Positions 2,766 through 34,810 of a stretch of DNA of 64,000 bases are shown here, piece by piece. Under the pieces are notes generated by a model. The model made no database searches. It saw only the letters and a list, made by a program, of their open reading frames with translations, and had not been told where the DNA came from. The stretch comes from a bacterium (GTDB lineage: Bacteria > UBA8248), in assembly GCA_965219955.1 (NCBI GenBank), contig OZ244799.1, positions 2,752,001 to 2,816,000 on the forward strand. The letters are read 5' to 3'. How positions within the stretch are numbered: position 1 is the stretch's first letter; every line of letters starts with the position of its first letter. The position numbers and the translations under genes were made by a program.

Positions 2766-2987
2766 ATGGCATTCGGACTCAACAGAGCGGAACTGATCGG
2801 GCGCTTAGGCGCCGACGTCACCATCAACCACCTGACCAGCGGCGGTCGTGTCGCCAACCTCTCGATCGCGACTGATGAGGGCTACGTCGACAAGCAGAGC
2901 GGCGAGCGGGTGGACAAGACCGAGTGGCACCGGGTCGTCACCTTCCAGCCCGGGCTGGTGGACATGTTTGAGAAACATATTTTATAA
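2766..2987 (+). pseudogene. ssb: 5' half of ssb, interrupted by integration of the inner element
   Basis: OB-fold N-terminus (NRAELIGRLGAD...TEWHRVV). Similarity to the intact ssb stops at DMFEKH, exactly at the direct repeat. Confidence 0.92.
2962..2974 (+). repeat. attL core ACATGTTTGAGAA
   Basis: Identical 13-mer at 34566-34578, extending to 15/16 matches. GC-rich to AT-rich junction next to the integrase. Confidence 0.88.
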
Positions 2988-3131
2988 TGACCGACTATCG
3001 TACCCCTACATACTACCGGAACGACAATACTCCCAATATTTCATTTATTTACAAGAATATCCGTATCGCCATCCACTGACATTCCTCTCTTCTCCTACCC
3101 TGTGGTTTGTTTTTATGTGTTGATATTCGTG

Positions 3132-3160
3132 TTGCCATTATTGATTCACGCTGCTATAGT
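3132..3160 (+). promoter_or_regulatory. Sigma70-type promoter for the integrase (likely near-leaderless transcript)
   Basis: TTGCCA-N17-TATAGT with extended -10 TG; ATG 7 nt downstream. Confidence 0.55.
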
Positions 3161-3167
3161 CCAGGAT

Positions 3168-4403
3168 ATGGAAAACAACACTGGAAAACGCATCGCCAGG
3201 GTCAGGACGACGCTCACGAAGCGCACCGTCGAGGCGCTAAAGCCCGAAGACAAATCCTGGATCGCCTGGGACGAGAAGCTTACGGGTTTCGGCGTCCGCG
3301 TCCAGCCCTCGGGTACGAAGTCGTTCATCGTCAACTACCGCACAGGCGAAGGCGGCCGCAAGGCGCCCAACAAGCGGGTGGTGATCGGACGCTACGGCCG
3401 CATCGCCCCCGACCGGGCCCGGCGTCTGGCCCAGGACCTGCTCGGACGCGTCGCCCGGGGCGAGGACCCCGCCGGTGAGCGGGCAGACGCCCGAGGCGTC
3501 CCCACCCTGGCCCGGGCCTTCGAGGTCTACATGGCGGCGAATCCCGACCGCGCGGAAAATACCGTCAGGCTCTACCGACAGAACCTCCGGGTCAACCTCT
3601 CCGACTGGCTCAAACGCTCGCTCGACGCCATTACCCGCCAGGACGTGGAGGATCGCTTCAATCTCATCACGACCAAACACGGCTGGTCGGCGGCCAACCA
3701 GACGCTCTCGATGCTGCGCTCGATCTACCGTCGACCCTGCGTCGATTTTGAGGGATTGCGCAACCCGGTCGACCTGTGGCTGGCGGCCGGCGGGCGCTTC
3801 CACCGGAAGCGGAGGCGGCGGATATCGAGCCCGGCAGAGGTACTGCCCCGCTGGCGCTCAGGGATAGAGGCCGCCGGCCTCGAGCCCGAGATCCGCGACA
3901 TCTTCCTGATCGGGGTCTACACCGGCATGCGCCGGGGCGAGATCGTATCCCTGCGCCGGGAGCAGGTGGACATGGAGCGGCGCATCCTCAGGGTCGAGGA
4001 GACCAAGACCGGAGAGCCGCTGGAGCTTCCGATCACCCGGCAGCTCACCGCCATCCTCGAACGGCGCCTCGCGGATGGCGCGGAACCGGCGGCGCGGCAG
4101 GAAGGCTGGGTGTTTCCCTCCCCCAGGAGCGGGGCCGGACACGTGGCGGACCTTGCGCGTTTCTATAGCGAGATTTCAGAAAAAGGAGGAACCCGGTTCT
4201 GGTTCCACGGACTGCGCAACGCCTTCATCACGGTGGCGGAGCGCGAACTCATGCTGTCGCGCTCGCTCACGAAGCGACTCGTGAACCATGCCCGGCCTCA
4301 GGATGTGACCGAGGGCTATGCCGCCGACTGGAGCGTCGGGCAGCTTCGCGAACCCGCGCAACGCATCGCCGACCGCATCGACGAGCTGATGCGGGGAACG
4401 TGA
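3168..4403 (+). CDS. Tyrosine recombinase/integrase with N-terminal arm-binding domain (P4-like)
   Basis: Arm domain WD..LTGFGVRV.PSG.KSF. Catalytic residues in TGMRRGE (R), TKT (K), HGLR, VNH and EGY (Y). Confidence 0.93.
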   Translation: MENNTGKRIARVRTTLTKRTVEALKPEDKSWIAWDEKLTGFGVRVQPSGTKSFIVNYRTGEGGRKAPNKRVVIGRYGRIAPDRARRLAQDLLGRVARGEDPAGERADARGVPTLARAFEVYMAANPDRAENTVRLYRQNLRVNLSDWLKRSLDAITRQDVEDRFNLITTKHGWSAANQTLSMLRSIYRRPCVDFEGLRNPVDLWLAAGGRFHRKRRRRISSPAEVLPRWRSGIEAAGLEPEIRDIFLIGVYTGMRRGEIVSLRREQVDMERRILRVEETKTGEPLELPITRQLTAILERRLADGAEPAARQEGWVFPSPRSGAGHVADLARFYSEISEKGGTRFWFHGLRNAFITVAERELMLSRSLTKRLVNHARPQDVTEGYAADWSVGQLREPAQRIADRIDELMRGT

Positions 4404-4419
4404 CGGTGACTTGCAAAGT

Positions 4420-4742: not shown

Positions 4743-6170
4743 CTAGAGATTCTTGCTCTCAAGGAATTCTGCGAAGATTTCCTCAGGTGTAGAAATCAAC
4801 TGTAGTGCCTCTTTAGTAAGTTCATCGAATGAAACGGGAAGAGAATCGATGTCGATATCGCCATCACGAAGGGGAAGTTGCTTGATCCATTCTACTAACT
4901 TTTTGACGTTGTGTTCACGGCTGAAAGTCCGCAGTTCAGCGATAGCTGTTTCACGATTTCCCCGTATCCAAGCAGTAAGTTTTTTCTCAATTGCCTCTCG
5001 TCTGCAACGGTGAATACTCGCACATGAGTCCAAGTAGTCTGTTGTATTGGCAGAATATAACTCTACTTGAGGAGCCACATGTAATAGAGTCGATGGAACC
5101 GATTTAACTTTGGGATCGACAATCACTAGATGGCGCTTATTGCTGAATTCCAGCCACTCACGCATTATTTTATTGATATGGTCGTCACGAAATCCATAAC
5201 CAATGCAAATCAATTTCTGTATGTAATTGATGTAAGAGCGGAAGTGCTCCAATAAACGAACCGGGAGAACTTGAGTGTGCCTAGAATCGAACTTGAAAGC
5301 ACCCGCCAAAAGTGAGCGACGAAGAAATTGCATTTCACCCGCTTGGTCTGCATACACGATTTCGTTTGTTGCCTTCAACGGCATTTGAGGTTCATAAAGA
5401 AGTTCCTCGTTGGTAGCTCGAAGCGCATTTAACATACCCTCGGCTCCATCGCCTAGAGGTAAAATCTTCAAAAGATCTTTGCCATCGCGAAATGTGAAAA
5501 TATCCAGCGCACCATGAATCTTTAAGAGGTTTATGCCAGGAGTGCCGTGTTGAAAAAATGGCATCGCGGATGATTCGAGATGATCACCTGGAAGTACCTC
5601 TCCCTTTAAATGTCCTATGACTGTGCCTTGTTGGTTTCTAAGAGGAAGTGCCACGACTTCGTCCGTAAATCCCGAACTTAATGGAATGCCTATCCTACTC
5701 GCTATGCATTCAATAATGATGTCGTGGTTGAGTGAGAAAATCCATAATGGATTGTTCTGCTCTACAAGTACGGACAATCCATCATAATAATTGAGGTTTC
5801 GCTGGATATAGTCGGCATTATTGATGTGACTTAAATAGAGTATGTAATACACCATTTCCACCAACCACGAATACAATCCATGGTATTGCTGCGATATAGA
5901 ATTCGAGCAACGTTTGAACTGCACCTCAAGATACCCTAGTAGGCTTTCGTAATGTTGGTCAGACCTTGTTAGCACAGAAGCGAAATCATCAATGATATCG
6001 TCGGGATATCCTCCACCTTGCGAGCGCCATGACTGATTCAATTGCCGCAATTTTTTAGGAGTCAACCATTTTGTTAATTCAGAAGTTAGCTCATGAGTTA
6101 GGGGCATTCCAGCTTCGTAAGATGCACCTGCTCCAATGAAAAGTCCTGTGAGGTTTTGTGATCCTGCCAT
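4743..6170 (-). CDS. SIR2-like (SIR2_2) domain protein, putative defence NADase
   Basis: FIGAGAS, FSLNHD, LLKIHG and IGYGFRDDHIN motifs. AT-rich relative to the backbone. Confidence 0.8.
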   Translation of the reverse strand: MAGSQNLTGLFIGAGASYEAGMPLTHELTSELTKWLTPKKLRQLNQSWRSQGGGYPDDIIDDFASVLTRSDQHYESLLGYLEVQFKRCSNSISQQYHGLYSWLVEMVYYILYLSHINNADYIQRNLNYYDGLSVLVEQNNPLWIFSLNHDIIIECIASRIGIPLSSGFTDEVVALPLRNQQGTVIGHLKGEVLPGDHLESSAMPFFQHGTPGINLLKIHGALDIFTFRDGKDLLKILPLGDGAEGMLNALRATNEELLYEPQMPLKATNEIVYADQAGEMQFLRRSLLAGAFKFDSRHTQVLPVRLLEHFRSYINYIQKLICIGYGFRDDHINKIMREWLEFSNKRHLVIVDPKVKSVPSTLLHVAPQVELYSANTTDYLDSCASIHRCRREAIEKKLTAWIRGNRETAIAELRTFSREHNVKKLVEWIKQLPLRDGDIDIDSLPVSFDELTKEALQLISTPEEIFAEFLESKNL

Positions 6171-6591
6171 AGTTTGTTGACCTCAGCCTGGGCTTGAGAT
6201 TTAAGACGATACCAGTGTTATCCCGAATTCTATAAAATCTAAAGCATGTGCTGATTTAGTTTCTATCGTGCAAAAGGAGTCGATTGACACTCCAAGTTAA
6301 TCTCGACTGGAATGGTATAAATTCGGTCTGAAGAACTATTTTACTCTAAGCACATCTAGACAATCTTATACCACTCTTGCAATCCCAATTAACTTGACAA
6401 GTTTAATCTCCACCTCCATCATTTCTCACTTAACCCGCTCTCGATCTCATCCCATCACTCGATTCGTCCGGCAATAGCCATTTTGCCCGGAACCGTTGTT
6501 CGGCAAGACTCGGTCTGGGCTCCGGCAATACAAGAAACTCCGAATCAAAGAAATTAGTCCCGCTTGAGCCGGATTGCTTCTCTCTCGTCTA

Positions 6592-6860
6592 CTTCCATCG
6601 CGTTTTCTAACATTTTTTGTCACACCCCTGCGCGCTGGAGCGCAAGTGTGAGCGTGTCTGGAAAAATTGCGCCGGAAACGGCCTATTAAAACTGTTGCCA
6701 GCGAGGTATTTTCGTATTATATTCGTATATATGAACGCGCTTAAAAGCTATGCCGGGACCACCCTGGCCTGTCAATCGAGATGAAACATTGAGACTTGGC
6801 TCGCACGCCGTCCGGCATCGTCGCCGGGGATCGGTTGGCTAAACGCGTCTCCACTCCACC
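6592..6860 (+). promoter_or_regulatory. Conserved traD upstream region with promoter
   Basis: TTGCCA(6695)-N17-TATATT(6718) overlapped by TTCGTA direct repeats 11 bp apart. Region conserved at ~57760-58025 on the minus strand. Confidence 0.55.
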
Positions 6861-7025
6861 CAAGGGAGGCCGGAAGTGACACCATGAGAAAAAATCACAG
6901 GTATCACCATAACAGCCGTGCTCTTTCCCGCCACGCGCGTACGTGTTCTCCGGGACGGATAGCTTCCTACGAGGCCATGACGACTGCGGCGTCACCATGC
7001 ATACAGTATGAAAAAGGAGAACCGG

Positions 7026-9143
7026 ATGACCATCGGAAACGCCACCTTGCGCGGCGGCCAGACGCTCCTGCACGACGCCCGCATGTGGGGCCAGCTGGCC
7101 CGCTGGGGCATCGTGGGTCTCGTACTCGCCATCGTCCTGACGCCTGCCGTCAGCGTCCTGAGGTCGACGAGCACGCACGAGTGGCGCGTCGTGGGGCTCG
7201 GCACGCTGGCCGAGGCCAAGCTCGCGATCGGCTATTCCCCCGATTCGGGCCAGGTGTACGAGTGGGGCGCGGGCGTGCGGACCGTGGAGCGGATATCTCT
7301 CATCGCAAGCGATCCCAGGATCGAGCGGATCAGGAGGCGCCTGCTCGATACTATCTATAAAAAGGCGTGGCTGGGCCTCTGGCTCGGCCTGGGCGGCGTG
7401 GCCCTGTTCGCCTTCTTCTTCTGGCTGCTGGGCAGGCGAATGGCGAGGGCGCACCGGGTGCGGGGTGCGGAGATGACGTCGGCGCAGGCGCTCGGGAGGC
7501 GCGTCCGGCCCCTCTCCTCCCGCCTGGCGGAGAAGTTCTTCCAGAAGGCGCGCAAGTCCAGGCCCCGTATCGCGGGCGTCCCCTGGCCCGAGCGCGCCGA
7601 GACCCAGCACACCATCGTCTCGGGCACCACGGGCTCGGGCAAGACCGTCCTGATCTCGGACCTGGTCGCGCAGATCAGGGAACGGGGCGAGCGCTGCATC
7701 CTCTACGACAAGATGGGGAGCTACACGCGGGCGTTCTTCGACCCCGCCCGCGACGTCCTGATGAATCCCCTCGACGCCCGGGCGCCGCGCTGGTCCCCCT
7801 TCCTGGAAGCCAGGACGCCCAGGGACTTCGACACGATGGCGGCGGCCCTGATACCCCAGCAGAAGGACACGGTGGACCCCTTCTGGGTCACGGCCGCGCG
7901 GCAGCTGTTCGCGAACGGCGCGGGCGTCCTGTGGAAGCGCGGCGTGAGGGAGAACCGGATACTCGTCGAGCACCTGCTCAAGACCGAACTCACCTCCCTG
8001 GCCGAGGCCATGGAGGGCACGGTGGCGCAGTCCATCGTGGACCCCGAGAACCCCAAGACGGCGCTCTCGGTGCGCGCCATGCTGACCGCGCACCTGGGCG
8101 CGCTCGAGTGCCTGCCCGACTCGGGAAAACCCTTCTCGATAAGGGAGTGGGTGGAGCGCGAGGACGAGACCGGCTTCTTGTTCCTGACCTCGCGCGGGGA
8201 CCAGCACGCGAGCCTCCGGGGCCTCATCTCGACCTGGCTAGAGATCGCCGTGAACGCGCTCTTATCCCTCGGCCGGGACGACGCGCGCAGGATATGGATT
8301 GTGCTGGACGAGCTTCCCACCCTCCACCAGGTGCCGAGCCTGCAGCCCGGTCTCGCCGAATCACGCCAGTTCGGGGGGTGCTTCGTGCTGGGTATCCAGG
8401 TGATATCGGCCCTTCGCGACCTCTATGGGCGAAACGGGGCCGAGACCGTATCGGGCCTGTGCGGCACCCGGGTGGTGCTGGCCGCGCCCGACCAGGAGAC
8501 GGCGCGCTGGTCGGCCGAGAGCCTCGGGCGCGGAGAGGTCACAGAATACGCGGAGGGCCTGAGCTACGGCGCGAGCGCCATGCGCGACGGCGTCTCGCTC
8601 ACGCAGCGCCGCGAGATGCGGCCCCTCGCCCTGCCTTCCGAGATCATGCGCCTGGAAAACCTGCACGGCTACCTCAAGTTCCCCGGTCCCTGGCCGGTGG
8701 CCAGGGTAGAGCTCGACTACGTCGGGAGACCCGAGGCGGCTGCGGGTTTTATTCCGCGCGAGGGCGTGAAGCTCATCGATACGGAAGAAATGAACGCCGC
8801 TCCGCCCAAGACCAAAAATGGCGCGGGAACCGAAGCGCCCGGGACCGTGGACGCTCCCGCCGATAAAGAGAGAGGTGCGGCCGGCGAGGCGGCGAACCGG
8901 CGGGAACCCGAATCGCCCGGCGATACGACCGCATCCGGTGAAGCGGAGGCTAAGTGTGAACGACCCGCTCCGCCGCCGGACGCAGGCCTGGCAGAACCCG
9001 AGCAAACCTCCGAGAAATCCGTGGCGCCGCAACCCGCGGTCCACTCCGCGGATGGGGATGACGCCGGTGCGGCCGATGACGATGAGCAAAACCGGGGCGA
9101 AGACGGCGAAGAGGCCGGGTCCCGAACGCCGGACTGGTTGTGA
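7026..9143 (+). CDS. traD: Type IV coupling protein, TraD/TrwB family
   Basis: N-terminal GGQ motif, two TM segments, Walker A SGTTGSGKT, Walker B LDELP, acidic low-complexity tail. Alternative start at 7008. Confidence 0.92.
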   Translation: MTIGNATLRGGQTLLHDARMWGQLARWGIVGLVLAIVLTPAVSVLRSTSTHEWRVVGLGTLAEAKLAIGYSPDSGQVYEWGAGVRTVERISLIASDPRIERIRRRLLDTIYKKAWLGLWLGLGGVALFAFFFWLLGRRMARAHRVRGAEMTSAQALGRRVRPLSSRLAEKFFQKARKSRPRIAGVPWPERAETQHTIVSGTTGSGKTVLISDLVAQIRERGERCILYDKMGSYTRAFFDPARDVLMNPLDARAPRWSPFLEARTPRDFDTMAAALIPQQKDTVDPFWVTAARQLFANGAGVLWKRGVRENRILVEHLLKTELTSLAEAMEGTVAQSIVDPENPKTALSVRAMLTAHLGALECLPDSGKPFSIREWVEREDETGFLFLTSRGDQHASLRGLISTWLEIAVNALLSLGRDDARRIWIVLDELPTLHQVPSLQPGLAESRQFGGCFVLGIQVISALRDLYGRNGAETVSGLCGTRVVLAAPDQETARWSAESLGRGEVTEYAEGLSYGASAMRDGVSLTQRREMRPLALPSEIMRLENLHGYLKFPGPWPVARVELDYVGRPEAAAGFIPREGVKLIDTEEMNAAPPKTKNGAGTEAPGTVDAPADKERGAAGEAANRREPESPGDTTASGEAEAKCERPAPPPDAGLAEPEQTSEKSVAPQPAVHSADGDDAGAADDDEQNRGEDGEEAGSRTPDWL

Positions 9144-11947
9144 TGGTCGTCTCGATCGGCGCCGTCGCCGCCCCCGCCCAGGGCGCCTCCTACTACGAGC
9201 GCGACGGCTATTACGCCAAAGACGATCCCGCCCACAGGGAGGTGAGCGCATGGGCCGGCAGGGGAGCGGAGGACCTCGGCCTCACGGGTACGGTAGACCC
9301 CGATACCTTCCGCGCAGTTCTGGAAGGCCATGTGCCCGACGGTTCGGGGAGAAAGCTCGGGCGCAGGCGCAAGGACGGCGTCCTGGAGCACCGGCCCGGA
9401 CGCGACCTCACCTTCTCGGCTCCCAAGTCCGTCTCGCTCGCCGCGCTGGTGGGCGGCGACGCACGCGTCGTCGAGGCGCATGACCGGGCGGTCGAACGCA
9501 CCCTCGCCTGGGTCGAGGGCAACGCCGCCGAGACCAGGATCAAGGACCCGGAGACGGGACGCATGGTCCGGGCCGGGGATCAGAAAACGGTGGCCGCGAC
9601 CTTCCGTCACGACGCCTCGCGCAACCTCGACCCCCAGCTTCACACCCACGCGGTGCTGGCCAACATGGTCCGGGGGCCGGACGGGAAATGGAGGACGATG
9701 TCCAACGAGGCGCTCTACCGCAGCCAGAAGCTGATCGGCATGCTCTACAGGAGCGAACTGGCGCAAGGGCTGGGGAAGCTGGGCTACGCGATTGAGAAGA
9801 CGCACGCCGACGGGCGGTTCGAGGTTGCGGGCGTTCGCCGCGAGGTGATCGAGGCGTTCTCGACCCGGCGGGCGGAGATCGAGGCGGCGATGGCCGAGCG
9901 GGGTCTGGGAACGACGGCTGCGAACCAGCGCACAGCCGAGCGCGCGGCGCTCATGACCCGCGCCCGCAAGCGTGACGTGGACAAGTCCGCGCTCAGGGGT
10001 TTGTGGGAGAAACAGGCCGCGGACCTCGGGTTCGACGCCAGGGCCCATGCGGCCGAAGCAGTGTCCCGGGTCGCCGGCCTTGAAGGCAAAGGAGAGGCCC
10101 GGGAGACCGGTCCGGCCGGAGAGGCCGTCGAATGGGCCGTGTCGCATCTCGCGGAGCGCGAGGCCGTGTTCGCCCGCGCCGACGCGCTTGCCGCCGCGCT
10201 GGCCTGGCGGCCGGGCGCGGTGTCTGTCGAGGCGGCGGAGAGGGCGCTCCGCGATCTCGAAAGGGGGGGACGGCTTCACCCCGCGCCGGGGTTGCACGGG
10301 AGAGACGACCTGGCGACCGACAAGGCGCTGGCGGACGAGCGTGAGACGATCGGCCTGATGCGCGACGGCCAGGGCCGGGGCCGGGTGGCGATGCGCAGCT
10401 GGATCGCGCAGGCGTATCTGCACAAGGGAGCGCTGACGCAGGGCCAGAGAGAAGCGGTCAAACTCATCCTCTCGACCAGGGACCGCGTCGTCGGCGTGCA
10501 GGGCTATGCCGGGACCGGCAAGACCACCATGCTCAACCGCGCCCGCGTGTTACTGGAAAAACGCGGGTTCGAGGTCAAGGGCCTTGCGCCCTCGGCCTCG
10601 GCGGTCAAGACGCTCGGAACCGAGGCCGGGATCGAGAGCGAGACGCTGCAGCGTTTCCTCGCGCGAAACGCCGGCGTGGCCGGGGAAAGGCTCACCAGAA
10701 AGGCCGAGAAGCAGATGCGCGCAGCCTGGAGCAAGACGGTACTCGTGGTGGACGAAGGCTCCCTCGCCTCCACCCTGCAGGCCCGCGACCTCCTGCGGGT
10801 CGCCCGCGCCCTGCGCATCCCCAGAGTCGTGCTGGTGGGCGATGAGAAACAACTCGGAGCCGTGGACGCCGGCAAGCCCTTCGCGCAACTGCAGCAAGCC
10901 GGCATGAAGACCGCCGTGATGGACGACATCCTCCGCCAGCGCGACCCGGATCTGAAAGCCGCGGTCGAGGCGAGCCTCGCCGGCGAGATCGGACGCGCGT
11001 TCGAGAAGCTGGGATCCAACGTCGCGCAGGTGAAGGCCGACAACATCGCGGGCGCGGTGGCGGCGCGCTGGCTCGCGCTCTCGCCCGAGGCGCGCGAGAA
11101 CACAGGCGTCATGGCGCCCAGTCATGAACTTCGCCAAAAGATCAACGCCCATATACGGGAGCGTCTCGCGCGCGATGGCAGTATCCACGGCCCCGCCTTC
11201 AGGTGCGAGCGGCTCGTCTCTCGCGGTTATACGAACCCCGAGAAATCACTCGCCGCGAACTACGCCCCGGGTGACGTCGTGGCCTTCCACCGTCCCTACA
11301 AGCGCCTGGGCGTCGAGAAGGACGACGAACTCCGCGTCGCGGGCGTGGATCACGAGAACCAGGCGGTGGTGCTCGAAGGCAAGGACGGCGGGAGCGTCTT
11401 GTGGAAGCCCGGGCGGATCGCCGGGCGGTCGGGCGGCGCCGAGGTCTACCGGGCCGAAGGCATCGAACTTCGCTCCGGCGACCGTATCCGCTGGACCCGC
11501 AACGACAGGAAACTCGGGCTGGTCAACAGCCGGACTGCCGAGGTCACGGACGTGAGAGGCGACCGCGTGAGCTTCCGACTCGAAGACGGGCGCAGGCTTG
11601 AACTCAGGCAAGACGAGCCGCAGCTGCGCCACCTCGACCATGCCTGGGCCTCGACCGTGCACGCCTTCCAGGGCCGGACCGTCGACAACGTGATCGCCGC
11701 GATGCAGGCCAACCACCCCCACCTCACTACGCAGAAGAGCTTCTACGTCGAGATCAGCCGCGCCCGGGACCGGGCGGAACTCGTGACCGACGACGCAAAG
11801 GCGTTGCGCGAGCGGCTTGAAACGGCCACGGGCGAACGGGTTTCGGCGCTCGAGGGGATTGGTAGCAAGCCGAGGGTGGCGGAGAAGGAGAACGAAGCGC
11901 CGGGAATGGAGAGGAGGCGGGATGGGCGCGGGATGGAGATATCCTGA
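9143..11947 (+). CDS. traI: MOBF conjugative relaxase-helicase (TraI/TrwC family)
   Basis: SYYERDGYY, DLTFSAPKSVS, HDASRNLDPQLHTH; RecD-like helicase motifs GYAGTGKTT and VVDEGS. TGATG coupling to traD. Confidence 0.95.
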   Translation: MVVSIGAVAAPAQGASYYERDGYYAKDDPAHREVSAWAGRGAEDLGLTGTVDPDTFRAVLEGHVPDGSGRKLGRRRKDGVLEHRPGRDLTFSAPKSVSLAALVGGDARVVEAHDRAVERTLAWVEGNAAETRIKDPETGRMVRAGDQKTVAATFRHDASRNLDPQLHTHAVLANMVRGPDGKWRTMSNEALYRSQKLIGMLYRSELAQGLGKLGYAIEKTHADGRFEVAGVRREVIEAFSTRRAEIEAAMAERGLGTTAANQRTAERAALMTRARKRDVDKSALRGLWEKQAADLGFDARAHAAEAVSRVAGLEGKGEARETGPAGEAVEWAVSHLAEREAVFARADALAAALAWRPGAVSVEAAERALRDLERGGRLHPAPGLHGRDDLATDKALADERETIGLMRDGQGRGRVAMRSWIAQAYLHKGALTQGQREAVKLILSTRDRVVGVQGYAGTGKTTMLNRARVLLEKRGFEVKGLAPSASAVKTLGTEAGIESETLQRFLARNAGVAGERLTRKAEKQMRAAWSKTVLVVDEGSLASTLQARDLLRVARALRIPRVVLVGDEKQLGAVDAGKPFAQLQQAGMKTAVMDDILRQRDPDLKAAVEASLAGEIGRAFEKLGSNVAQVKADNIAGAVAARWLALSPEARENTGVMAPSHELRQKINAHIRERLARDGSIHGPAFRCERLVSRGYTNPEKSLAANYAPGDVVAFHRPYKRLGVEKDDELRVAGVDHENQAVVLEGKDGGSVLWKPGRIAGRSGGAEVYRAEGIELRSGDRIRWTRNDRKLGLVNSRTAEVTDVRGDRVSFRLEDGRRLELRQDEPQLRHLDHAWASTVHAFQGRTVDNVIAAMQANHPHLTTQKSFYVEISRARDRAELVTDDAKALRERLETATGERVSALEGIGSKPRVAEKENEAPGMERRRDGRGMEIS

Positions 11948-12064
11948 ACGATTTCCGTGTCTTTTTGATGGAAAGGCAACCTTGAGGTGCTTCGAAACCT
12001 TACGCTTGACGAACGCCGGATTTGCCAACATAATTGTTTCCAACAATATTGCTGGAGGATTGCA

Positions 12065-25001: not shown

Positions 25002-25009
25002 TTGTGAGC

Positions 25010-25852: not shown

Positions 25853-26308
25853 ATGGAACGACTCCGGTTCCGGATTCCGGCGCTGTTGTGGCTGCCGGCG
25901 GGGATTGTCACCGAAGAGGTTCTGCGCACGGGGTCCGCGCAGGGGATGATGACACTGCTCGCCGCCCCGGAGTTGCTGTCCGCAGCAGCGTGCGGCGTCC
26001 CGCTCGCGCTCGCCTGCAGGCGTCTTTCCCGCTCGGGGTATCCAGGCCCCGCCCTGGTGGCGTGGTTGCTGCTCGGCGCCGCCGCAATGGTGAGCTTCGC
26101 CGGTGCGTTCCCCGCAGGCGTTCAGGCGGTACTGGCCTCCCTTCCGGTATGGGCCGTGGTATGGCGTCTCGAGCGGCGGCCGAGCCGGCTGGAATTCGCT
26201 CCCTCGTCCGAATGGCGCGGGCGCGGAGGTTCGCTCGCCCGGTTCATGCTGCGTGCGTTGAGCGCTCCCGAAGCCCCCCGCCGATACCGCCTCCGGCGGA
26301 CCTCCTGA
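25853..26308 (+). CDS. Small membrane protein
   Basis: GGAGG RBS, hydrophobic; diverged homolog of 2008-2367. Confidence 0.6.
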   Translation: MERLRFRIPALLWLPAGIVTEEVLRTGSAQGMMTLLAAPELLSAAACGVPLALACRRLSRSGYPGPALVAWLLLGAAAMVSFAGAFPAGVQAVLASLPVWAVVWRLERRPSRLEFAPSSEWRGRGGSLARFMLRALSAPEAPRRYRLRRTS

Positions 26309-26408
26309 CGGCGCCGGGCCGGCTGCGGAGCAGGGCGGCGGCGTACCCTCCCCCCGGCCCGTTCCCCCCGCCGGCGGCCGGCCGGCTACACGTGTGACGG
26401 CAGCCCGG

Positions 26409-27218
26409 CTAACGACCTGTGAGCGCCGCCATCCAGGAGCTCTCCTCGACGACCTCCACCTCATCGCGGGAGAGTTTTTCGAAGGCGAGGCACATCGCCA
26501 CCTCCTCCCATGAGTCCAGTGGCCCGTGCTCGATGCCCGTTTTGAGTTCGACTATGGTGAAGCGCGGCGGAAGGACCGGCATCCCCTTGTGCTCGCCTGA
26601 TGAGTGGTATGAGCGCACTGCGCACGGGGCGCATCTGGCGGCTCCATCGCTTGGGGATTGGCAGTCGACACACACGCCGCGTGCCCGCCTGCCGCGATAG
26701 CGCGTCCTGCTCGCGGCGTTCTTTTGCGGACGGCGCTTCACGTCCCTTGCGGCGCACGAAGCGCACGTCGAAGCCCCATCGCCGGTTTCCGCCCCGCATC
26801 TTCCGCAAAGTCCCCTGGCGCGCCTTTTCTCGTAAAGGGCCCGCTCCGCCGCGCGCCTCGCCTCCCGGCAGGCCTCACAGACGGCGCCGCCCTCTGCGGG
26901 TTTTCGTTTTCCGCAGCGCGGGCACAAGCCGGCCTCGAGGCGCTCGCGCCTTCGCTTCCCCGCCCTCTCGCGCGCCATGCGGCGGCGGCTTTCGGGATTG
27001 CGGCCGCCGTATTGCGCTCCCTCGAGTTTTCCCTTGAGGTATCGGGCGCGCTCGGCGGCCCGGCTTCTTTCCAGGCAGGCCTCGCAAAGACTTCGCCCGG
27101 ACGCAGGGCGTCTGCGTCCGCATTTGACGCATTTGCCCAGCGCGCGGCGCTCGGCCGTCCTGCGCCTGTGGCGTTCGCGCTCGTATTCGCGTCGTCTTTC
27201 AATATCCCTGTGGGGCAT
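26409..27218 (-). CDS. Poly-zinc-finger protein (4 x C4)
   Basis: All 16 finger cysteines conserved with 1105-1917; shared SSGEHKG and DSWEEVAMCLAFEKLSR. Confidence 0.8.
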   Translation of the reverse strand: MPHRDIERRREYERERHRRRTAERRALGKCVKCGRRRPASGRSLCEACLERSRAAERARYLKGKLEGAQYGGRNPESRRRMARERAGKRRRERLEAGLCPRCGKRKPAEGGAVCEACREARRAAERALYEKRRARGLCGRCGAETGDGASTCASCAARDVKRRPQKNAASRTRYRGRRARGVCVDCQSPSDGAARCAPCAVRSYHSSGEHKGMPVLPPRFTIVELKTGIEHGPLDSWEEVAMCLAFEKLSRDEVEVVEESSWMAALTGR

Positions 27219-27294
27219 GGTTTTCTCCGGGTGTCGGTGAAGTCGTTCGGACGGCGAGACGTCTTGCGGGCGGAAGTCCTCCCGGGGGAGTTCC

Positions 27295-27591
27295 TCACCG
27301 GCACAGCATGCGGGCCCAGACGAGGTGCTCGCCCCACAGCTGCAGCCCGCTTCCGGGGACCTTGAGCCCCGTGCAGACGATGAGTTCGTCGCACGCGGGC
27401 CGCATCTCGCGCACCGCCCGGCGCGAGGCCGTCACGCGCTTTCCCTTGCGTTCGCCCGCCTCTGCCGGTGGGAGGGGCCTGATGTCGCCGTCGGCGGACC
27501 TGTAGCGCTTCACTTCGTAGCGCTCATCCGCCAGGCCTTGAGCGAGGAGATGGGTGAGGAAGGTGTCCGCTTCTCTTCGGGGTCTACGCAT
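27295..27591 (-). CDS. Conserved hypothetical backbone protein (98 aa)
   Basis: AAGGAGG RBS; homolog of 775-1089. Confidence 0.72.
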   Translation of the reverse strand: MRRPRREADTFLTHLLAQGLADERYEVKRYRSADGDIRPLPPAEAGERKGKRVTASRRAVREMRPACDELIVCTGLKVPGSGLQLWGEHLVWARMLCR

Positions 27592-28029: not shown

Positions 28030-31000
28030 TTGATGCGCCCGAAAGAAATAATGGTAATGAGCAAAAAGGCGGATACCGGACCTCAAGGAAGTGGCGAGAA
28101 TGAGACGCACTCCTTGAAGGTCTCGAAGAAGGCATTACGTTTGAGGGTTGAACGAAGAGGTTTTGCGTCGCTCTTGTACGCGATACTGCGGCCTAAAGAC
28201 GCCAGGGCAGCTTTCGTGAATGAGCACTCGCTGAGCCTGATGCATGGGTCCGGATACACGGAAATTCCTATCGAGGACATCACGTCGGTCAAGGTCGAAA
28301 CCGGACAGTACTGGAGCCGCATACGCTTCCATCATACCGCAGGATCCGCAACTGTGTCGGGGCTGGAGCGAGATGCCATCAGGGCATTCGCCGAAGTGCT
28401 TGAGACCGCAAGGATATCGTGTTGGCGCCGGACACTGGCAACGCAGGTCATGCAGCTTCAATCGATACTTGAATACCAGGAACATCTCGCGAATCCGCCG
28501 GAGCACATGGCGAGCGTTTTCCTTGAGTTGAGACGCGATGCGGAAAAAGCGGTGAACCAATTCGCGGCTCGTTGGCCGAAGTCGTTGGCGAATGCCCCGG
28601 AAACCCGGCTACTGAAGAAGGTTCAAGACTTTCTGGAAAGCCCGGAGCTTCGGCGGGCGGAAGAAATCGCCAGAGTACGCTGGTGGCGTCGGAAGTTGGC
28701 GACGGAGATCGCAACGCTCCATTCGGTACTTGAGCGCCTGAAGCAACTCGCAAATCCCTCTGAATACCAAGCGAGCAGTATATTCCGTGATCTGAGACAA
28801 GATGCTGAGAAGGCGGTGGCTCAATTTGTGGAGCGTTGGCCCAAGTCATTGCCAAACGCCCCGGATTTCCTGGTAGTGAAGTCGATAAAGGAATTTCTGG
28901 AAGACCCGGAGCGTCTGCGCGCAGAAGTGAACAACACCTTCGTCGAAATGGAATTGAAGAGGTCACAAGGATTCTTCGACCGGATTGAGACCCGACCGCT
29001 TACCGAAGAGCAACGCCGGGCGGTCGTCGTGGATGAGGACCGAAACCTGGTGGTCGCCGCGGCCGGCAGCGGCAAGACCTCGGTGATCGTCGCCAAGGCC
29101 GGATGGCTTCTCCACAGGAAGTACCTGAATCCGTCGGAATTGCTGCTCCTGGCGTTTGCGAAAGACGCCCAGCAAGAGATGGAAGCAAGGGTCCGCAAGA
29201 GACTCGGTGACGAGGCGGCGCAAGGGATGACCGTCAGAACTTTCCACGGTCTGGGACTGGCGATCATTGGTGAGGCCGAAGGCAGGCGGCCGGCTTTGAC
29301 CAAGGCGTCCCAGGACGAAAACGCGCTGTTTAATCTGCTCAAGGACATCGTCAACGAACTGACAGAAGAGCGTAAATTCTTTGCAGACTTACTGAAGTGG
29401 TTCCAGTCGCAGTTCGCACTCTACCGGAGCGAGCATGAATTCAGTTGTTGGGGTGAGTATTGGGAGTATATCCGGAGGCACGAAATAATATCGCTCAAAG
29501 GCGAGAGGGTCCGGAGCTACGAGGAATGCGAGATTGCCAACTTCCTCTATCTAAACGGCGTGCCCTACGAATACGAACGCATTTATCAGCATGAGACCGC
29601 CACGCCCGAGAAGGGTCCATACAAACCGGATTTCTATCTGAACGAAGCCGGAATCTACATTGAGCATTTCGGCCTCGACGCTTCGGGAAACACTGCACCG
29701 CACGTCCCACGGGACAAGTATCTCGAAGAAATGGAATGGAAGCGCGCGATTCACGGAAAACACGGCACTATCCTCATCGAGACATTCAGCCATGAGCATA
29801 CCGCTGGCAAGCTGACCGAGAATCTGGCCGAGAAACTCCGCGCTCATGGCGTAACTCTGTCTCCCATACCCCGTGAAGAGTTCTTCACTGTGCTGAGCCG
29901 GGAGAAACGGATTGACCCTTTCATTCGCCTGTTGGCAACCTTTCTCAAGCACTTCAAGGGCGCGCGGCTTACTTTTCCTGAAGTAGCTCGACGGGCCGCA
30001 GGTCACAGGAACTCTTTGCGGGCTCAAGTCTTCCTCGCCTTGTTCCAGCCGGTCTTTGAGCGATATGAGGAAACACTCTCCGGCTCGGGACAGATCGATT
30101 TTCACGACATGATCTCCAGGGCGACGGACCATGTCGAGGCCGGACGCTATCAAAGCCCATTTGCCTGTGTCCTGGTCGACGAGTTTCAGGACATTTCGCC
30201 GGGCCGGGCGAGGTTGCTCAAGGCGCTCTTGGAGAAATCGCCTGGAGCCCGGCTGTTCGCCGTCGGTGACGACTGGCAGGCGATATACCGCTTCGCCGGC
30301 TCTGACATCGGAATCATGCGGGAATTCAAAGAGCATTTTGGCGACTACGAACGTATCGACCTGGGAACAACTTTTCGATGTGACGAGCGCATCGTCTCAG
30401 TCTCTAACAAATTCATCGTGCGCAACCCTGCGCAGATTCCCAAGACGGTTGCTTCGCCGCATCGGGCGGACGGCCCTTGTGTCCATGTCGGTCTTCCTGG
30501 TGAGCAACGGCTTCCCCTGTTAAACGAGACGCTCGACAAGATTGCCGAAGAGGCCAGTGCTTTCGGGGAAAAATCGAGCGTGCTGTTGCTCGGCCGCTAC
30601 AATCACACGCGACCGAAAAACTTTTCCGCACTCAACAGGATGTATCCGAATCTCTTGATTTCTTTCAAGACTGTACACCGATCCAAGGGCCTTGAGGCGG
30701 ATTACGTCGTGGCGCTCGACCTGTGTGCCGGAAAGCATGGTTTTCCGTCCGAGATCGACGACGAACCACTTTTCGATCTGGTTCTCTCGACGCCCGAAGG
30801 GTATCAGAATGCGGAGGAGCGGCGCCTGTTCTACGTCGCCCTCACCCGTGCGAGACGCCGTGTCTTCCTGCTTGCCGAGGGTGGTCCGATTTCTCCCTTC
30901 ATTACGGAACTGATTGAGGATGGATACGGCGTCACCGTCTTTGGCCGAGCGCCGGAGGACGACGTTTCCTGTCCTGTATGCATAAAGGGACATCTCGTGC

Positions 31001-31275
31001 TGCGCGAAAGGAAAAGAAACGGCGGCAATTTCTATGGTTGTTCGAACTTTCCTTATTGCGAGCATGCGCAGAGACCGTGCCCGCTTTGCGGCAAAGGGTT
31101 GCCGATTAAGGTAGGCAAAGCATTTCGCTGCCGAGATTGCGGCCAATCCATCGAGGCTTGCCCTGAATGCGAAGGCTGGTTACAGATGAAAAACGGTCAA
31201 TATGGTTCTTTTTGGGGATGTTCGAATTATCCTTCGTGCACATTCACCCGCGACCATAGGGAAAATAGTCAATGA
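28030..31275 (+). CDS. UvrD/HelD (helicase IV)-like SF1 helicase with inserted PD-(D/E)xK nuclease and C-terminal zinc ribbons
   Basis: AAAGSGKTS, LVDEFQD, VGDDWQAIY, HRSKGLE, EERRLFYVALTRAR; insert YKPDFYL...IEHFG; FYGCSNFPYC and FWGCSNYPSC ribbons. Start uncertain. Confidence 0.88.
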   Translation: MMRPKEIMVMSKKADTGPQGSGENETHSLKVSKKALRLRVERRGFASLLYAILRPKDARAAFVNEHSLSLMHGSGYTEIPIEDITSVKVETGQYWSRIRFHHTAGSATVSGLERDAIRAFAEVLETARISCWRRTLATQVMQLQSILEYQEHLANPPEHMASVFLELRRDAEKAVNQFAARWPKSLANAPETRLLKKVQDFLESPELRRAEEIARVRWWRRKLATEIATLHSVLERLKQLANPSEYQASSIFRDLRQDAEKAVAQFVERWPKSLPNAPDFLVVKSIKEFLEDPERLRAEVNNTFVEMELKRSQGFFDRIETRPLTEEQRRAVVVDEDRNLVVAAAGSGKTSVIVAKAGWLLHRKYLNPSELLLLAFAKDAQQEMEARVRKRLGDEAAQGMTVRTFHGLGLAIIGEAEGRRPALTKASQDENALFNLLKDIVNELTEERKFFADLLKWFQSQFALYRSEHEFSCWGEYWEYIRRHEIISLKGERVRSYEECEIANFLYLNGVPYEYERIYQHETATPEKGPYKPDFYLNEAGIYIEHFGLDASGNTAPHVPRDKYLEEMEWKRAIHGKHGTILIETFSHEHTAGKLTENLAEKLRAHGVTLSPIPREEFFTVLSREKRIDPFIRLLATFLKHFKGARLTFPEVARRAAGHRNSLRAQVFLALFQPVFERYEETLSGSGQIDFHDMISRATDHVEAGRYQSPFACVLVDEFQDISPGRARLLKALLEKSPGARLFAVGDDWQAIYRFAGSDIGIMREFKEHFGDYERIDLGTTFRCDERIVSVSNKFIVRNPAQIPKTVASPHRADGPCVHVGLPGEQRLPLLNETLDKIAEEASAFGEKSSVLLLGRYNHTRPKNFSALNRMYPNLLISFKTVHRSKGLEADYVVALDLCAGKHGFPSEIDDEPLFDLVLSTPEGYQNAEERRLFYVALTRARRRVFLLAEGGPISPFITELIEDGYGVTVFGRAPEDDVSCPVCIKGHLVLRERKRNGGNFYGCSNFPYCEHAQRPCPLCGKGLPIKVGKAFRCRDCGQSIEACPECEGWLQMKNGQYGSFWGCSNYPSCTFTRDHRENSQ

Positions 31276-31591
31276 GCAAGATACCAACCCAGATGGTCGA
31301 TTCTATGAAGGGAACGAGAAGGTAGGGGAAAGGGAATCGTCCATTGGCAGAATGAGTCCTCATGATAGTTTGCTCTTTACCCTGAGTACCGCGTTCCATT
31401 GGCTTTGCCATGAGGGGGCAGCTATTTTGGCTGGCCTCGCTGCACTTGTGGTTGTTTTCGATTTGCGGTGTTTCACTGCTCAATGTACGAAGTTCGAGGG
31501 GGTCGGAAATTGCGGTAGCGTTTGATATCTTCGCCTTCGAAGCCTGGAGCCCGAGCTTGGAATCCATCACGAGGACAACCGACTAACTTCA

Positions 31592-32053
31592 TTATTCATC
31601 ATCTTCATTCAGATCCGATTCAAATGTCGTTTTCGGGAAGAGTATTTCATCAACGGCTTTCCACGGCGCGGTGGATGGTGGAACATTGCAGTTGTCCCGA
31701 AATGCCCGGTTGTGAAGATACAGGTTTTTGTCCTGGAGTCTTTTGAATTCTTCGCGCATGGCGGGATGACCTGAACTCATGACGACAAAACCCGATCCGA
31801 CTGCTCCGAGGAAAAGCATTATGCCAGCCATCATGGCAAGAGCACCTACCTCATTTGCGGTAATTCCATCCTGGCTGATGTTGATTTTGTGCCTTGCCCT
31901 GAATTCGGCGAAATCTCGATCGTTTGCCTCGATAAGCGTTTCGAGTTTGATGCAGGAGAGCTTTTTCGAGATTTCGGCAGAGAGACTTGCAGGCAAGCCG
32001 AAGCCATGAAGCACAAGAGCAAGCGCCATGATGCAGCAGACAGTTTTTCTCAT
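31592..32053 (-). CDS. Secreted/membrane hypothetical protein
   Basis: Signal-peptide-like N-terminus and an internal hydrophobic helix; TAATG coupling to the upstream gene. Confidence 0.55.
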   Translation of the reverse strand: MRKTVCCIMALALVLHGFGLPASLSAEISKKLSCIKLETLIEANDRDFAEFRARHKINISQDGITANEVGALAMMAGIMLFLGAVGSGFVVMSSGHPAMREEFKRLQDKNLYLHNRAFRDNCNVPPSTAPWKAVDEILFPKTTFESDLNEDDE

Positions 32054-33474
32054 TATCGTTTTCCCCCGAATGCGCCCGTTAGGTCCCGGCGTCTGAGAAC
32101 GCCTCCCATCCCCTCATGGTTTCTGCCGAAAAAAGCGCCAGTGACGTCACCTTCGTCCTTGCTCTCGTGTCCCCAGTTGTGGAAGCCGTTTTCCTGGATG
32201 TGGACGGTATACTCGAGATCTCCGTCTCCCCAGGTTTGGGTATTGTCGTATTCGAGATCAGAGAACGAAAGACCACCCGAGGTCAGATCGGCGAGTTGCA
32301 CGTCGAGCCTGGCGTCGCCGGTTATCTTACGCCCCGAGGAAGTGAAGCCAAGGAGCGTTCCCACCCATGTGGCGGTTTCCGGCAGGAGACGGTTGTCGCT
32401 CAGGTTTCCGGCCGGTCCCGGGCCGGTGGCCCATGGTTGGGCCATGCCGTTTCTCATAGAGACGCCGAAGGCGACCGTTTCTCCGGCTATGTCGAATTCT
32501 CCCCGGAGGTGAAACGAGACGCTTTCCCAGGGGCCGAGGTTTTCAGCGGTGATTTCACTTGCCGGCGTACCTGGCTCGAATCTGGCGTAGGTTGCGTGGA
32601 TCGCGTCCTTGTCGATTTCCCTGAGCAAAAACGTTCCCAAAAGCGGGATGAGAGCGTTGATTTGCGGGTTCATAATGGAAAGGGGGAAGCGCGTTGCGTC
32701 CGTGTGACTATAGAACCCCAGCGCGTGAAGCAGTTCATGGGCGATAACGGCCGTGAAATTGTCATGGTCTTCTCCCGTATCGATCAGGATGTGCGATGAG
32801 TGGGCTTCCTTTCGGTCCCTGGTGGTCCACCAACGCGCGATACCGAGCGTCGATGGCTCCGAATATGCCACTGCCGGCCATCTGTACTGGGGGAGAAACT
32901 CGACATGGATATTTCCGTAGGAAGGCGCGTCCGTCTGTTGGCCCGGGGCGTAGGACTCAGAAAAGGCGATTTGTTTATCATAAGGAAGGACGGAGTTGAC
33001 GATCCGCACCGCGTGCAGTGTGTCCGCAGCGTATTCATCGCTCGTTCCCTCCACGATGCTTACCGTCGGGGGGTTCTGAAACGTGGCGAGATATCCAGCG
33101 TCCGTGGTCATCTCGCGAAGATAGTCGACGATGTCGGCAGCATTTTCTCCGTCGACAACTCGGCCTTCGTAAAGTCGAACACCATTTGCCAAACCAGTGC
33201 TTCGGAGGTTTTCGGCAGGGGCGCCCCCACTCGTTCCGATGTGGGTGATAATTCCCAGACCCAAAACATTCCATACCGGGCCCGGCAAATTATGTGAAAT
33301 GTGGGGCTGCTCCGGCATCGGTGCAGGTTCTGATACTTCCGGCATCCGTGCCGGTTCCGCGACCGAGACTCTTGAGGCGCCACCTTCCCCGCCGCAGCCG
33401 GTAGCCATGAACGCCACGAAGACCATAAGGAGAAGTATTGAAAGTACTGCAACAAGTTTGCGTTTGGTTTTCAT
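32053..33474 (-). CDS. Surface lipoprotein with zinc metallopeptidase domain and C-terminal transferrin-binding-protein-like barrel
   Basis: Lipobox ATGC; HELLHALGFYSH plus SIM Met-turn; C-terminal GDVTGAFFG...GMGG...TGAFGGKR. Confidence 0.72.
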   Translation of the reverse strand: MKTKRKLVAVLSILLLMVFVAFMATGCGGEGGASRVSVAEPARMPEVSEPAPMPEQPHISHNLPGPVWNVLGLGIITHIGTSGGAPAENLRSTGLANGVRLYEGRVVDGENAADIVDYLREMTTDAGYLATFQNPPTVSIVEGTSDEYAADTLHAVRIVNSVLPYDKQIAFSESYAPGQQTDAPSYGNIHVEFLPQYRWPAVAYSEPSTLGIARWWTTRDRKEAHSSHILIDTGEDHDNFTAVIAHELLHALGFYSHTDATRFPLSIMNPQINALIPLLGTFLLREIDKDAIHATYARFEPGTPASEITAENLGPWESVSFHLRGEFDIAGETVAFGVSMRNGMAQPWATGPGPAGNLSDNRLLPETATWVGTLLGFTSSGRKITGDARLDVQLADLTSGGLSFSDLEYDNTQTWGDGDLEYTVHIQENGFHNWGHESKDEGDVTGAFFGRNHEGMGGVLRRRDLTGAFGGKR

Positions 33475-33806
33475 TTCACCATTTTGATCTTTCTTCCAAG
33501 TATAAAATGCCTATTTCAGGTAAGGTGGAGCTTACGATGTCTGCAAATCCATTTTCAACCTTATGGTGCGATGAATGATAAGTGGTCGTGCGGAACTCGT
33601 ATTCGAGCCAGATCATTTGGCTACCTCAGTCTCGACCTAAGGCGATAGGCACGCATAGTGTTGGCTTGGGCCGGTCTTGTCGCCATTTTCAACTTTGAGA
33701 AAAGTTGTAGTACATTCCTCGATCATTAGGGCCAGGGTAGGTGGCGTGTCACTAGCGGGGAGGAACCTGAGTTATGGCCATTATAAGGTTCGCGCAAGAA
33801 CCCAAA

Positions 33807-34220
33807 ATGTTCACTAGAATCATTCTCACAGTTGCTGCCTGCGGTGCGCTTACATTTCTGGTCGCCTGCGGTGGAACGATCGATGGCGTGGTAAGGGGCG
33901 AAGGAAGTCGCGTAACGTTCCTGTACAAACAGGGGATAGATCGCGACTTCTACGAGGCGACAATTGACGGTGAGCATTTCAAGGGGCAAGCAGTCCAGGC
34001 TGACACGCGAACCGGTTCAGGTATCGGTTTTTTCCGCGGAACAACAGTCCCCGTCATTACATCATCGACCAGTGGAAATTTCGTGGCTGTAATGTTTGGT
34101 GACAGAGGCTCCACGATACGCTGCAAAATGAACTATGCTGACAGTTCCGGGTTCACTTCGATGGGAGGGGTCGGAATTTGTCAACACAGCGACGGCCGCA
34201 TTATTGATGTAATGTGGTAG
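33807..34220 (+). CDS. Small lipoprotein, hypothetical
   Basis: Lipobox LVAC; beta-rich with two further Cys residues. Confidence 0.65.
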   Translation: MFTRIILTVAACGALTFLVACGGTIDGVVRGEGSRVTFLYKQGIDRDFYEATIDGEHFKGQAVQADTRTGSGIGFFRGTTVPVITSSTSGNFVAVMFGDRGSTIRCKMNYADSSGFTSMGGVGICQHSDGRIIDVMW

Positions 34221-34565
34221 AAAAGGATTCAATATAACTACGTACTCGTTTGATGAAACCCTCCTAGCCTCGACATTTGAAATTATCATACTCGGTGGAG
34301 GCAACGGCGTTTTGGTCGACGCCGGAAGTGGTATTGCGCAGGAATATCCGATCAAAGGAACTGTTCTTATCGAACCTGAGGGTTCAGTTCCCGATGATTT
34401 CAAAGAACAATACTTGGAATTGAAAAAAATTAGCCGAGAATGTGACGTCGTGTTTTCTGTCGAAGCGTCGTGTTGCTATAGTGTTGACAACTAATCTTTA
34501 TTGAATTATTTGATTAAATAAAACAAATATATTCAATATCTTATATCGAATATAAATTATTAAAC

Positions 34566-34578
34566 ACATGTTTGAGAA
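34566..34578 (+). repeat. attR core ACATGTTTGAGAA
   Basis: Identical to 2962-2974; preceded by a very AT-rich arm (34490-34565) and followed by GC-rich ssb coding sequence. Confidence 0.88.
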
Positions 34579-34810
34579 GCACGCGAAGAAGGGCCGCCTG
34601 GTCTATGTCGCGGGCAAGCTCCAGACCCGCCGCTGGAAGAAGGACGATGAGGACTCGGACCGGTTCTCGACCGAGATCCTTATCGCGCCGGGCGGACGCG
34701 TGCAGTTCCTGGACAAGGTGAACGGGAACGGCAACGGAAACGGCGCGCACGCCGAGACGGCGGACGTGGTGGCCACTGCGGGCGTAGTGGGCGAAGACAT
34801 TCCATTTTGA
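34568..34810 (+). pseudogene. ssb: 3' half of the interrupted ssb
   Basis: MFEKHAKKGRLVYVAGKLQTRRW...EDIPF continues the 2766 fragment in frame. Confidence 0.92.

Follow-up and report, generated by a model that had tools for sequence, protein, structure and literature searches.

Tyrosine integrases of the P4 type usually use the 3' end of tRNA genes. Nesting of integrative and mobilizable elements (IMEs) in genes of integrative and conjugative elements (ICEs) is already known in streptococci: IMEs of Streptococcus suis have as their targets the genes for SNF2 and PPI on Tn5252-family ICEs and the traG gene of Tn1549-related ICEs, via serine recombinases (Libante et al. 2019, PMC7168690). Tn1806 nested site-specifically in ICESa2603-family ICEs has also been reported (PMC12942858). 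Here we analysed a window of 64,000 nucleotides, positions 2,752,001-2,816,000 of a single-contig bacterial genome of 4,283,615 bp (G000), in which an element of 31.6 kb (the guest, 2975-34565) divides the ssb gene of a related element (the host). Our results favour, with a probability of roughly 0.85, the reading that the guest is an IME which was inserted site-specifically by its own tyrosine integrase into codons 66-71 of its sibling's ssb gene.

The evidence begins with the split gene and the two ends of the insert. Positions are those of the window unless the genome is named; protein domains were assigned with Pfam and defence systems with PADLOC.
2766-2987, + strand: host ssb N-terminal fragment, 73 aa; ssb residues 1-71 followed by HIL and the stop codon; matches positions 1-64 of the Pfam SSB profile
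2962-2974: attL core ACATGTTTGAGAA, one copy of the direct repeat; nine other genome loci have their junction at this position
2975-3167: AT-rich arm (P') at the integrase-side end of the guest; occurs once in the genome
3168-4403, + strand: tyrosine integrase, 411 aa, with Arm-DNA-bind_3 and Phage_integrase domains
34400-34565: AT-rich arm (P) at the guest end remote from the integrase; occurs once in the genome
34566-34578: attR core ACATGTTTGAGAA, the other copy of the direct repeat; matching arrangement at attR of five other events
34568-34810, + strand: host ssb C-terminal fragment, 80 aa; residues 67-146; Pfam SSB profile positions 62-103

The N-terminal fragment ends in GLVDMFEK before the HIL and stop, and the C-terminal fragment begins with MFEKHAKKGRL. 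Since the bases flanking the two copies of ACATGTTTGAGAA differ, the repeat is exactly 13 bp long. This 13-mer occurs twice in the whole genome, both times at the ssb breakpoints, and the two 150-nt junction zones have 1 such word in common, against a chance expectation of about 0.0003 shared 13-mers. In silico deletion of 2975-34578 gave 441 nt in frame, encoding 146 aa with no internal stop, of which 145 were identical to the intact ssb copy at genome 1,866,350 and 127 to the insert's own ssb. The integrase stands at the start of the guest, next to attL; its Phage_integrase domain scored 54 bits against a cut-off of 27.1, and R255, K280, H347, R350, H374 and Y384 were kept in 77-78 of 78 aligned homologs, so that the catalytic set is complete. 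The first-pass annotation of the window had read ssb as split at a 13-bp direct repeat, with an insert that begins with a tyrosine integrase and whose removal restores the frame, and all three points were borne out.

The same integration was found repeatedly elsewhere. One genome per species was scanned for relatives of the integrase, and the best 80 of the 374 found were kept. Residues 1-71 of ssb lie upstream of the integrase in eight of the nine loci at 86% identity or above (L001-L009). The distance from the ssb fragment to the integrase start was 188-189 bp in seven loci and 190 bp in the window; at L007 it was 1,096 bp, the arm there being followed by additional DNA. The junction has the form GA(C/T)ATGTTCGAGAA followed by ACATATT in seven loci and is off by one or two letters in L004 and L005, the common form at the close loci being ssb sequence up to ACATGTTCGAGAA and then ACATATT. 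At L011, with an integrase of 81% identity, ssb is cut near residue 75. Metagenome contigs scanned by exact pattern for the attL junction gave two matches, both with ssb residues 1-71 and then an integrase 93% identical. The target is element-borne: in the window genome, the housekeeping ssb is a distinct gene at 976,759. Ten of 41 genomes of the window's kin, G000 included, gave a match at E 1e-100 or better, and matches of at least 87% came from five other genomes of the same genus (one of them that of L006) and two genomes of another family in the same class. L004 sits on an 18-kb contig of G010, which is listed in the same genus as the window genome. In a tree of 78 integrases, the group that cuts ssb at residue 71 formed one clade, with L006 as its sister. 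Recurrence in several uncultured bacteria argues that the insertion is real and a repeated habit, not an accident.

Whole events could be followed in other genomes. A search of five such genomes with the SSB protein gave 7-14 matches each, and five events in four genomes (G001a, G002a, G003a, G004a, G004b) consisted of two ssb halves that share a strand, lie 31-43 kb from each other and enclose an intact ssb on the opposite strand; G004 holds three events. All five had the order ssb N-terminal half, integrase, variable cargo, transfer genes, inverted backbone, variable cargo and ssb C-terminal half, and the inverted backbone comprised genes for a NikA-like protein, YspA, DUF4326, ssb, a 52-aa open reading frame (ORF), a zinc-ribbon protein and a 98-aa ORF (p98). 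In all six events examined, the guest backbone was inverted relative to the host ssb. Among these five events, TrwC was found in four and the coupling protein in one; DUF4326 and TrwC were not detected in G004a, nor the NikA-like gene in G004b.

The attL and attR cores of the five other events are ACATGTTCGAGAA, with only 11 bp shared in G003a. Because attL of G003a keeps the target's GAT, leaving the 11-bp shared stretch, the crossover is placed within ATGTTCGAGAA. The integrase-side arm matched over its full length at 86-89% in G001a and G003a, and in G002a and G004a, at 76-82%, over its last ~62 nt only; four other events matched part of the far arm, over 79-117 nt and at 77-85%, and for G004b no arm match was listed. 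The contexts vary: in the window a zinc-ribbon gene precedes ssb by 850 bp, for example, and at L003 the 6 kb upstream of ssb contain none. Identity across events was 90-94% for the integrase, only 70-77% for TrwC and 78-92% for YspA; judged by sequence comparison, it is the integrase-att module that defines the ssb-seeking line. A transposon with target-site duplication was also considered and rejected, since no transposase domain was found in the scanned ORFs of the insert and the duplicated sequence is alike in all six events.

This recurrence bears directly on whether the arrangement could be an assembly chimera that joined two sibling copies. The six backbone copies in the window genome permit misjoins, and its contamination is estimated at 5%; the chromosome is nevertheless a single contig, and like architecture was seen in the five other events, the nine loci and the two metagenome contigs. 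Reads were represented as Logan contigs from four runs of one sample, probably the source. One contig of 5.5 kb from this separate assembly crosses attR, running from the insert interior to 34603-34605 with zero differing letters. It extends 38-40 letters to the right of the 34565/34566 boundary, only 25-27 of them past the core, and is thus weak and non-independent support for attR and silent on excision. That the arrangement recurs in other assemblies weighs more heavily against an artefact, and a chimera is hardly credible. In runs X20-X23, 0.83-0.92 of the sampled words of window 2500-3500 were present, a measure of word sharing only. Many of the runs that had a small share of the words are labelled as sponge, coral or marine metagenome, which is no evidence on habitat.

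Apart from its ends and integrase, the guest contains the following features.
4743-6170, - strand: SIR2-like protein, cargo; Pfam SIR2_2 just under the cut-off, PADLOC SIR2 models with best E 1.4e-17
7008-9143, + strand: coupling protein of TrwB type; TrwB_AAD_bind E 4.6e-139
9140-11947, + strand: TrwC relaxase-helicase of MOBF type; TrwC profile 3-285 of 286, E 3.9e-85, with AAA_30 and UvrD_C_2
11987-13318, + strand: STAND-like ATPase, cargo; no PADLOC match
13334-18049, + strand: AAA_16-TPR protein, cargo, 1571 aa; no PADLOC match
18906-21752, + strand: N6-methylase/Eco57I-like protein, cargo; weak IIG/MTase matches only in PADLOC
22108-22491, - strand: NikA-like protein, inverted backbone
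23085-24017, - strand: YspA/SLOG protein, inverted backbone
24039-24410, - strand: DUF4326 protein, inverted backbone
25010-25444, - strand: intact ssb, 144 aa, inverted backbone
25521-25679, - strand: 52-aa ORF, inverted backbone
26409-27218, - strand: zinc-ribbon protein (znr), inverted backbone
27295-27591, - strand: p98, inverted backbone
28030-34220: second cargo stretch, with further ORFs of 153 aa and 473 aa (- strand) and 148 aa (+ strand)
28030-31275, + strand: UvrD-helicase/Top1-zinc-ribbon protein in the second cargo stretch; GajB-like UvrD matches in PADLOC

The guest thus has its own recombinase and att sites, together with TrwC and a TrwB-type protein and no mating-pair apparatus, the combination that characterizes an IME; its TrwC has the full-length relaxase domain followed by a helicase that is typical of MOBF. 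Domains of a type IV secretion system (T4SS) were absent from all scanned ORFs of the guest (20 larger, 8 small) and from all 30 larger ORFs scanned in the window. With a relaxase and a coupling protein present and T4SS genes absent, the guest is IME-like. The AAA_16-TPR protein contains, at window 14826-16720, up to 11 TPR-like units of 129 bp (43 aa) at 60-79% identity.

The host lies on both sides of the insert.
642-2765, + strand: left part of the host backbone; homology to siblings in the genome begins at about 642
697-1089, + strand: p98-like ORF, left backbone
1105-1917, + strand: zinc-ribbon protein, with weak zinc-ribbon Pfam matches
2548-2685, + strand: small ORF, left backbone
35378-35752, + strand: DUF4326 protein, backbone right of the insert
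35774-36727, + strand: YspA/SLOG protein, backbone right of the insert
36980-37645, + strand: NikA-like protein, backbone right of the insert
38603-42067, + strand: HmaA, PADLOC E 2.7e-169
43166-46249, + strand: HmaB, PADLOC E 3.7e-100
47232-49994, + strand: HmaC, PADLOC E 2.3e-93
52597-55506, - strand: TrwC relaxase, in inverted repeat with the guest copy
55503-57680, - strand: coupling protein, in inverted repeat with the guest copy
58095-63350, - strand: 1751-aa DEAD/DpdF-like and UvrD helicase (Pfam and PADLOC), right side of the host

The split ssb sits within a znr-ssb-DUF4326-YspA-NikA backbone that is common to the siblings. Comparison of guest and host showed two inverted repeats on the kilobase scale, one between 22107-27450 and 928-2974 plus 34566-37646 (73-94%) and one between 6568-11863 and 52783-58047 (72-94%), the two long arms of the latter being 90% and 94% identical. 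At the protein level, guest and host are 90.7% identical in TrwC, 89.6% in the coupling protein, 93.2% in YspA, 90.3% in DUF4326 and 67.4% in the zinc-ribbon protein. The guest TrwC is 91% identical to that of the host and ~71% to two other full copies in the genome. These identities suggest either that guest and host are recent siblings or that nested siblings swap backbone DNA.

Such repeats, with long arms at 89-94%, could also drive inversions through homologous recombination. Recombination or inversion between two separately integrated siblings could in principle have used the same repeats to make an apparent nest, and the breakpoints speak to this: they lie outside the shared sequence, in a direct repeat of exactly 13 bp that has unique AT-rich arms beside it, the frame is restored to the base upon removal, and identical breakpoints occur in other genomes with different cargo. 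We regard such an origin as very improbable.

The family is represented further in the same genome. The rest of the genome contains four intact element-type ssb genes, five copies each of the YspA and DUF4326 genes, three TrwC copies and one fragment, and two coupling proteins. At 2,569,056-2,584,577 of the genome there is an F-type T4SS with Pfam matches to TraG_N, TraF, TraN, TraU, TraW, TraC, TrbI/TraB and TraK, flanked by a TrwC/coupling-protein pair and an ssb-DUF4326-YspA block, near tandem integrases. The sibling ICE spans genome 2,561,366-2,603,431 and carries the sole T4SS found in the genome; a search of the genome for CagE_TrbE_VirB gave nothing, and TrbI and AAA_10 gave one match each, near 2.58 Mb. 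Because one sibling has an F-type T4SS, the family includes a full ICE, whose relatives in the window, guest and host, lack a T4SS, and this system at 2.57-2.58 Mb is the candidate helper for mobilization of the guest. Integrases ~29% identical to that of the guest occur in tandem pairs at six places in the genome, for example at 2,561,390-2,563,698, at 3,691,688-3,693,999 and at window -17087 to -14802, and adjoin a TrwC gene at two of the six. A broken relative of the guest integrase, with residues 206-429 only, in two frames and 58-63% identical, lies at genome 1,940,344-1,941,019.

From these parts a cycle can be proposed. The guest integrase would recombine attP with the ssb core, and the guest would excise as a circle, which its TrwC would nick together with the NikA-like protein. 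The guest's own coupling protein may then hand the DNA to the T4SS of the sibling ICE; alternatively, the guest may ride passively inside its host. In a new cell, the guest would find its site wherever an element of the family is present, because the ssb site moves along with the element family instead of staying with the chromosome. The broken copy would be replaced by the ssb that the guest brings, and the variable slots, one between the integrase and the transfer genes and one beyond p98, would gather defence systems.

Several observations weigh against site-specific insertion by a mobile guest. One close relative, L006 (86%), lies at a non-ssb site behind a Kelch-repeat ORF, where there is core-like sequence only, and distant relatives adjoin many different genes. 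On these grounds ssb might be an occasional secondary site of an integrase whose main site is elsewhere. This is very improbable, as eight of the nine close loci, both metagenome contigs and the window share one ssb position, the residue-71 integrases form one clade, and a tRNA gene adjoins none of the 56 other loci scanned; the location of L006 is itself possibly a secondary site. Its region 5800-6000 contains the core-like ACATGTCTTTGAA and then ACATGTTATA.

Further difficulties are that no second half was found for three ssb fragments, of which one bears the attR signature, and that, among 41 other intact element-type ssb genes from six genomes, 21 have the exact core without an insert, which rules out saturation of the sites. 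The exact core was present in none of the six guests' own ssb genes, compared with these 21 of 41 copies (naive one-sided Fisher p 0.02); as the copies are related and some of the 'other' ones may belong to guests, self-immunity of the guest through an altered core is a lead only.

The remaining points concern present-day mobility. No excisionase was recognised, with 0 Pfam hits among 10 small ORFs; neither an excised circle nor a restored ssb was seen in the material searched, which consisted of contigs only, and these drop rare forms; and the host has neither an integrase nor a T4SS inside the window, so it may be a remnant. The event could therefore be genuine and site-specific, with guest and host now fixed remnants that neither excise nor transfer, and the guest of G004a, which gave neither a TrwC nor a coupling-protein match, fits that picture. 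We consider it unlikely: the integrase, relaxase and coupling protein of the window guest are full-length with complete domains and catalytic residues, and the events differ in cargo and context, with three in one genome, which argues for repeated recent activity of the lineage. The two cores, identical at 13 of 13 positions, likewise speak against a fixed nest.

On insertion of the guest into its sibling, the results can be set against what had first been proposed. The insert does carry an inverted copy of the host backbone, with kilobase inverted repeats and 67-93% protein identity, and the proposed check of integrase homologs placed the att site in ssb at eight of the nine close loci. That the integrase targets a backbone gene of sibling elements was supported as well; the wording that the family parasitises itself is an interpretation. 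The description of the family as stacking defence cargo is fair, judging by the SIR2, Hma, BREX and Cas3 genes present.

The cargo of the window guest comprises SIR2, two NTPases without a PADLOC match, a weak IIG-like methylase and a GajB-like UvrD helicase, and that of the host comprises Hma and the DpdF-like/UvrD helicase. The Hma system is complete as three consecutive large genes, for the HmaA helicase, the HmaB methylase and the HmaC ATPase. Ten cargo ORFs from other guests were scanned, five of them without a hit. BREX (PglZ, PglX, BrxC; E from 3e-276 down to 0) was found in the guest of G004a and Cas3 (E 1.4e-223) in that of G003a, and ankyrin-repeat proteins in those of G001a and G003a. 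In the guest of G004b (L090:6130-19596), the cargo slot contains a single open frame of 4488 aa.

The limits of the host were also considered. The integrases nearest to it are the tandem pair (~29% identical) 15-17 kb to its left, beyond transporter genes, and its right flank becomes ordinary genes past about window 68,300. A repeat of ~400 bp at window 67901-68306, with at least 8 genome copies at 82-84% identity, adjoins a Mutator-type transposase fragment and may be the right limit of the host element. On the left, short repeats of 90% identity at window -4349 to -3745 and -14790 to -14491 flank a 10-kb transporter block after the tandem integrases, and similar DNA also follows the tandem integrases at 3.694 Mb; these repeats may reflect the way in which the host element is delimited.

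The wider integrase family uses other positions too. Among the 80 loci kept, nine lay at ssb residue 71-75 and five at other ssb positions or in another orientation (L044, L066, L070, L071, L074); six lay behind a truncated yspA (three cut at residue ~94, one at 213 and two at 265), four beside an ICE-type integrase gene, on its 3' side (L022-L025), and 56 at none of these. Single-linkage clustering of the upstream DNA merged 41 loci and was discarded. Twenty neighbour ORFs from the 56 loci were scanned. One was a coupling protein that breaks off at position 286 of the 468 in the profile; others were IS66, rve, reverse transcriptase, RecD2-like helicase and DUF2201. Eight looked ordinary (Kelch, weak LuxR-type helix-turn-helix, CoA-transferase, MFS, TauD, desaturase, ornithine cyclodeaminase and M48 peptidase), and six had no hit or a weak DUF hit. 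Adjacency of these ORFs is no proof that they are targets of the integrase. Targeting of tRNA genes was rejected: the window contains none, none adjoins the integrase at the 56 related loci, and the two of these loci that hold tRNA genes have them more than 4 kb from the integrase.

A broader picture can be sketched tentatively, at somewhat less than an even chance when all its parts are taken together. One family of tyrosine integrases may have radiated onto the backbone genes of one TrwC/F-type conjugative family, its targets being ssb at no fewer than four positions, yspA at three, a coupling-protein gene and the integrase gene of the elements themselves, on its 3' side. The backbone of the conjugative elements would then be a landing pad for a guild of sibling IMEs, which would settle in any host that the family reaches, since the site would move with the conjugative element, and BREX, CRISPR-Cas, Hma and SIR2 would be piled into composite islands. 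As a further step, guests may shield their own ssb from siblings by a change of the core.

Site-specific insertion into a sibling's ssb would have several consequences. Mobile elements can use each other, and not the chromosome, as the integration site, which would free the guest from one host genome. Nesting would build composite islands in which defence systems from several elements stand together and could move together. The system also offers a compact tyrosine integrase with a defined core of 11-13 bp in a protein-coding gene, and its relatives that have shifted to other sites are a useful series for the evolution of integrase site choice.

Literature searches, incomplete in coverage, returned no paper describing integration into ssb, nor any on this family of elements. 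New here are the tyrosine integrase, the ssb site, the sibling guest with a spare ssb and the spread of integrases over several backbone genes.

The closest described systems share part of this arrangement. The IME_SNF2, IME_PPI and traG insertions of S. suis are alike in that the element's own recombinase targets a conserved ICE gene, a composite is formed and the target gene is truncated (PMC7168690). They differ in having serine integrases and occurring in Firmicutes, whereas a tyrosine integrase with an arm-binding domain and an ssb target are found here, and the present guest shares the backbone of its host and supplies a second copy of the gene that it disrupts. The guest was accordingly not assigned to the streptococcal IME_SNF2/IME_PPI type, although it works alike. 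The nesting of Tn1806 in ICESa2603-family ICEs is similar as an integrative element placed site-specifically inside another, and is set apart by different elements, phylum and target (PMC12942858).

The domain make-up (PF13356 and PF00589), catalytic set, short duplicated core and AT-rich arms are those of P4-type tyrosine integrases; unlike with these, no tRNA gene lies in the window or next to the integrase at the 56 related loci, and the target ssb is not restored by the insertion. With TrwC/TrwB (MOBF) systems that have an F-type T4SS, the family backbone shares a full-length TrwC and a TrwB-type coupling protein, and one sibling has the T4SS; unlike such systems, the guest and host of the window are without a T4SS and chromosomally integrated.

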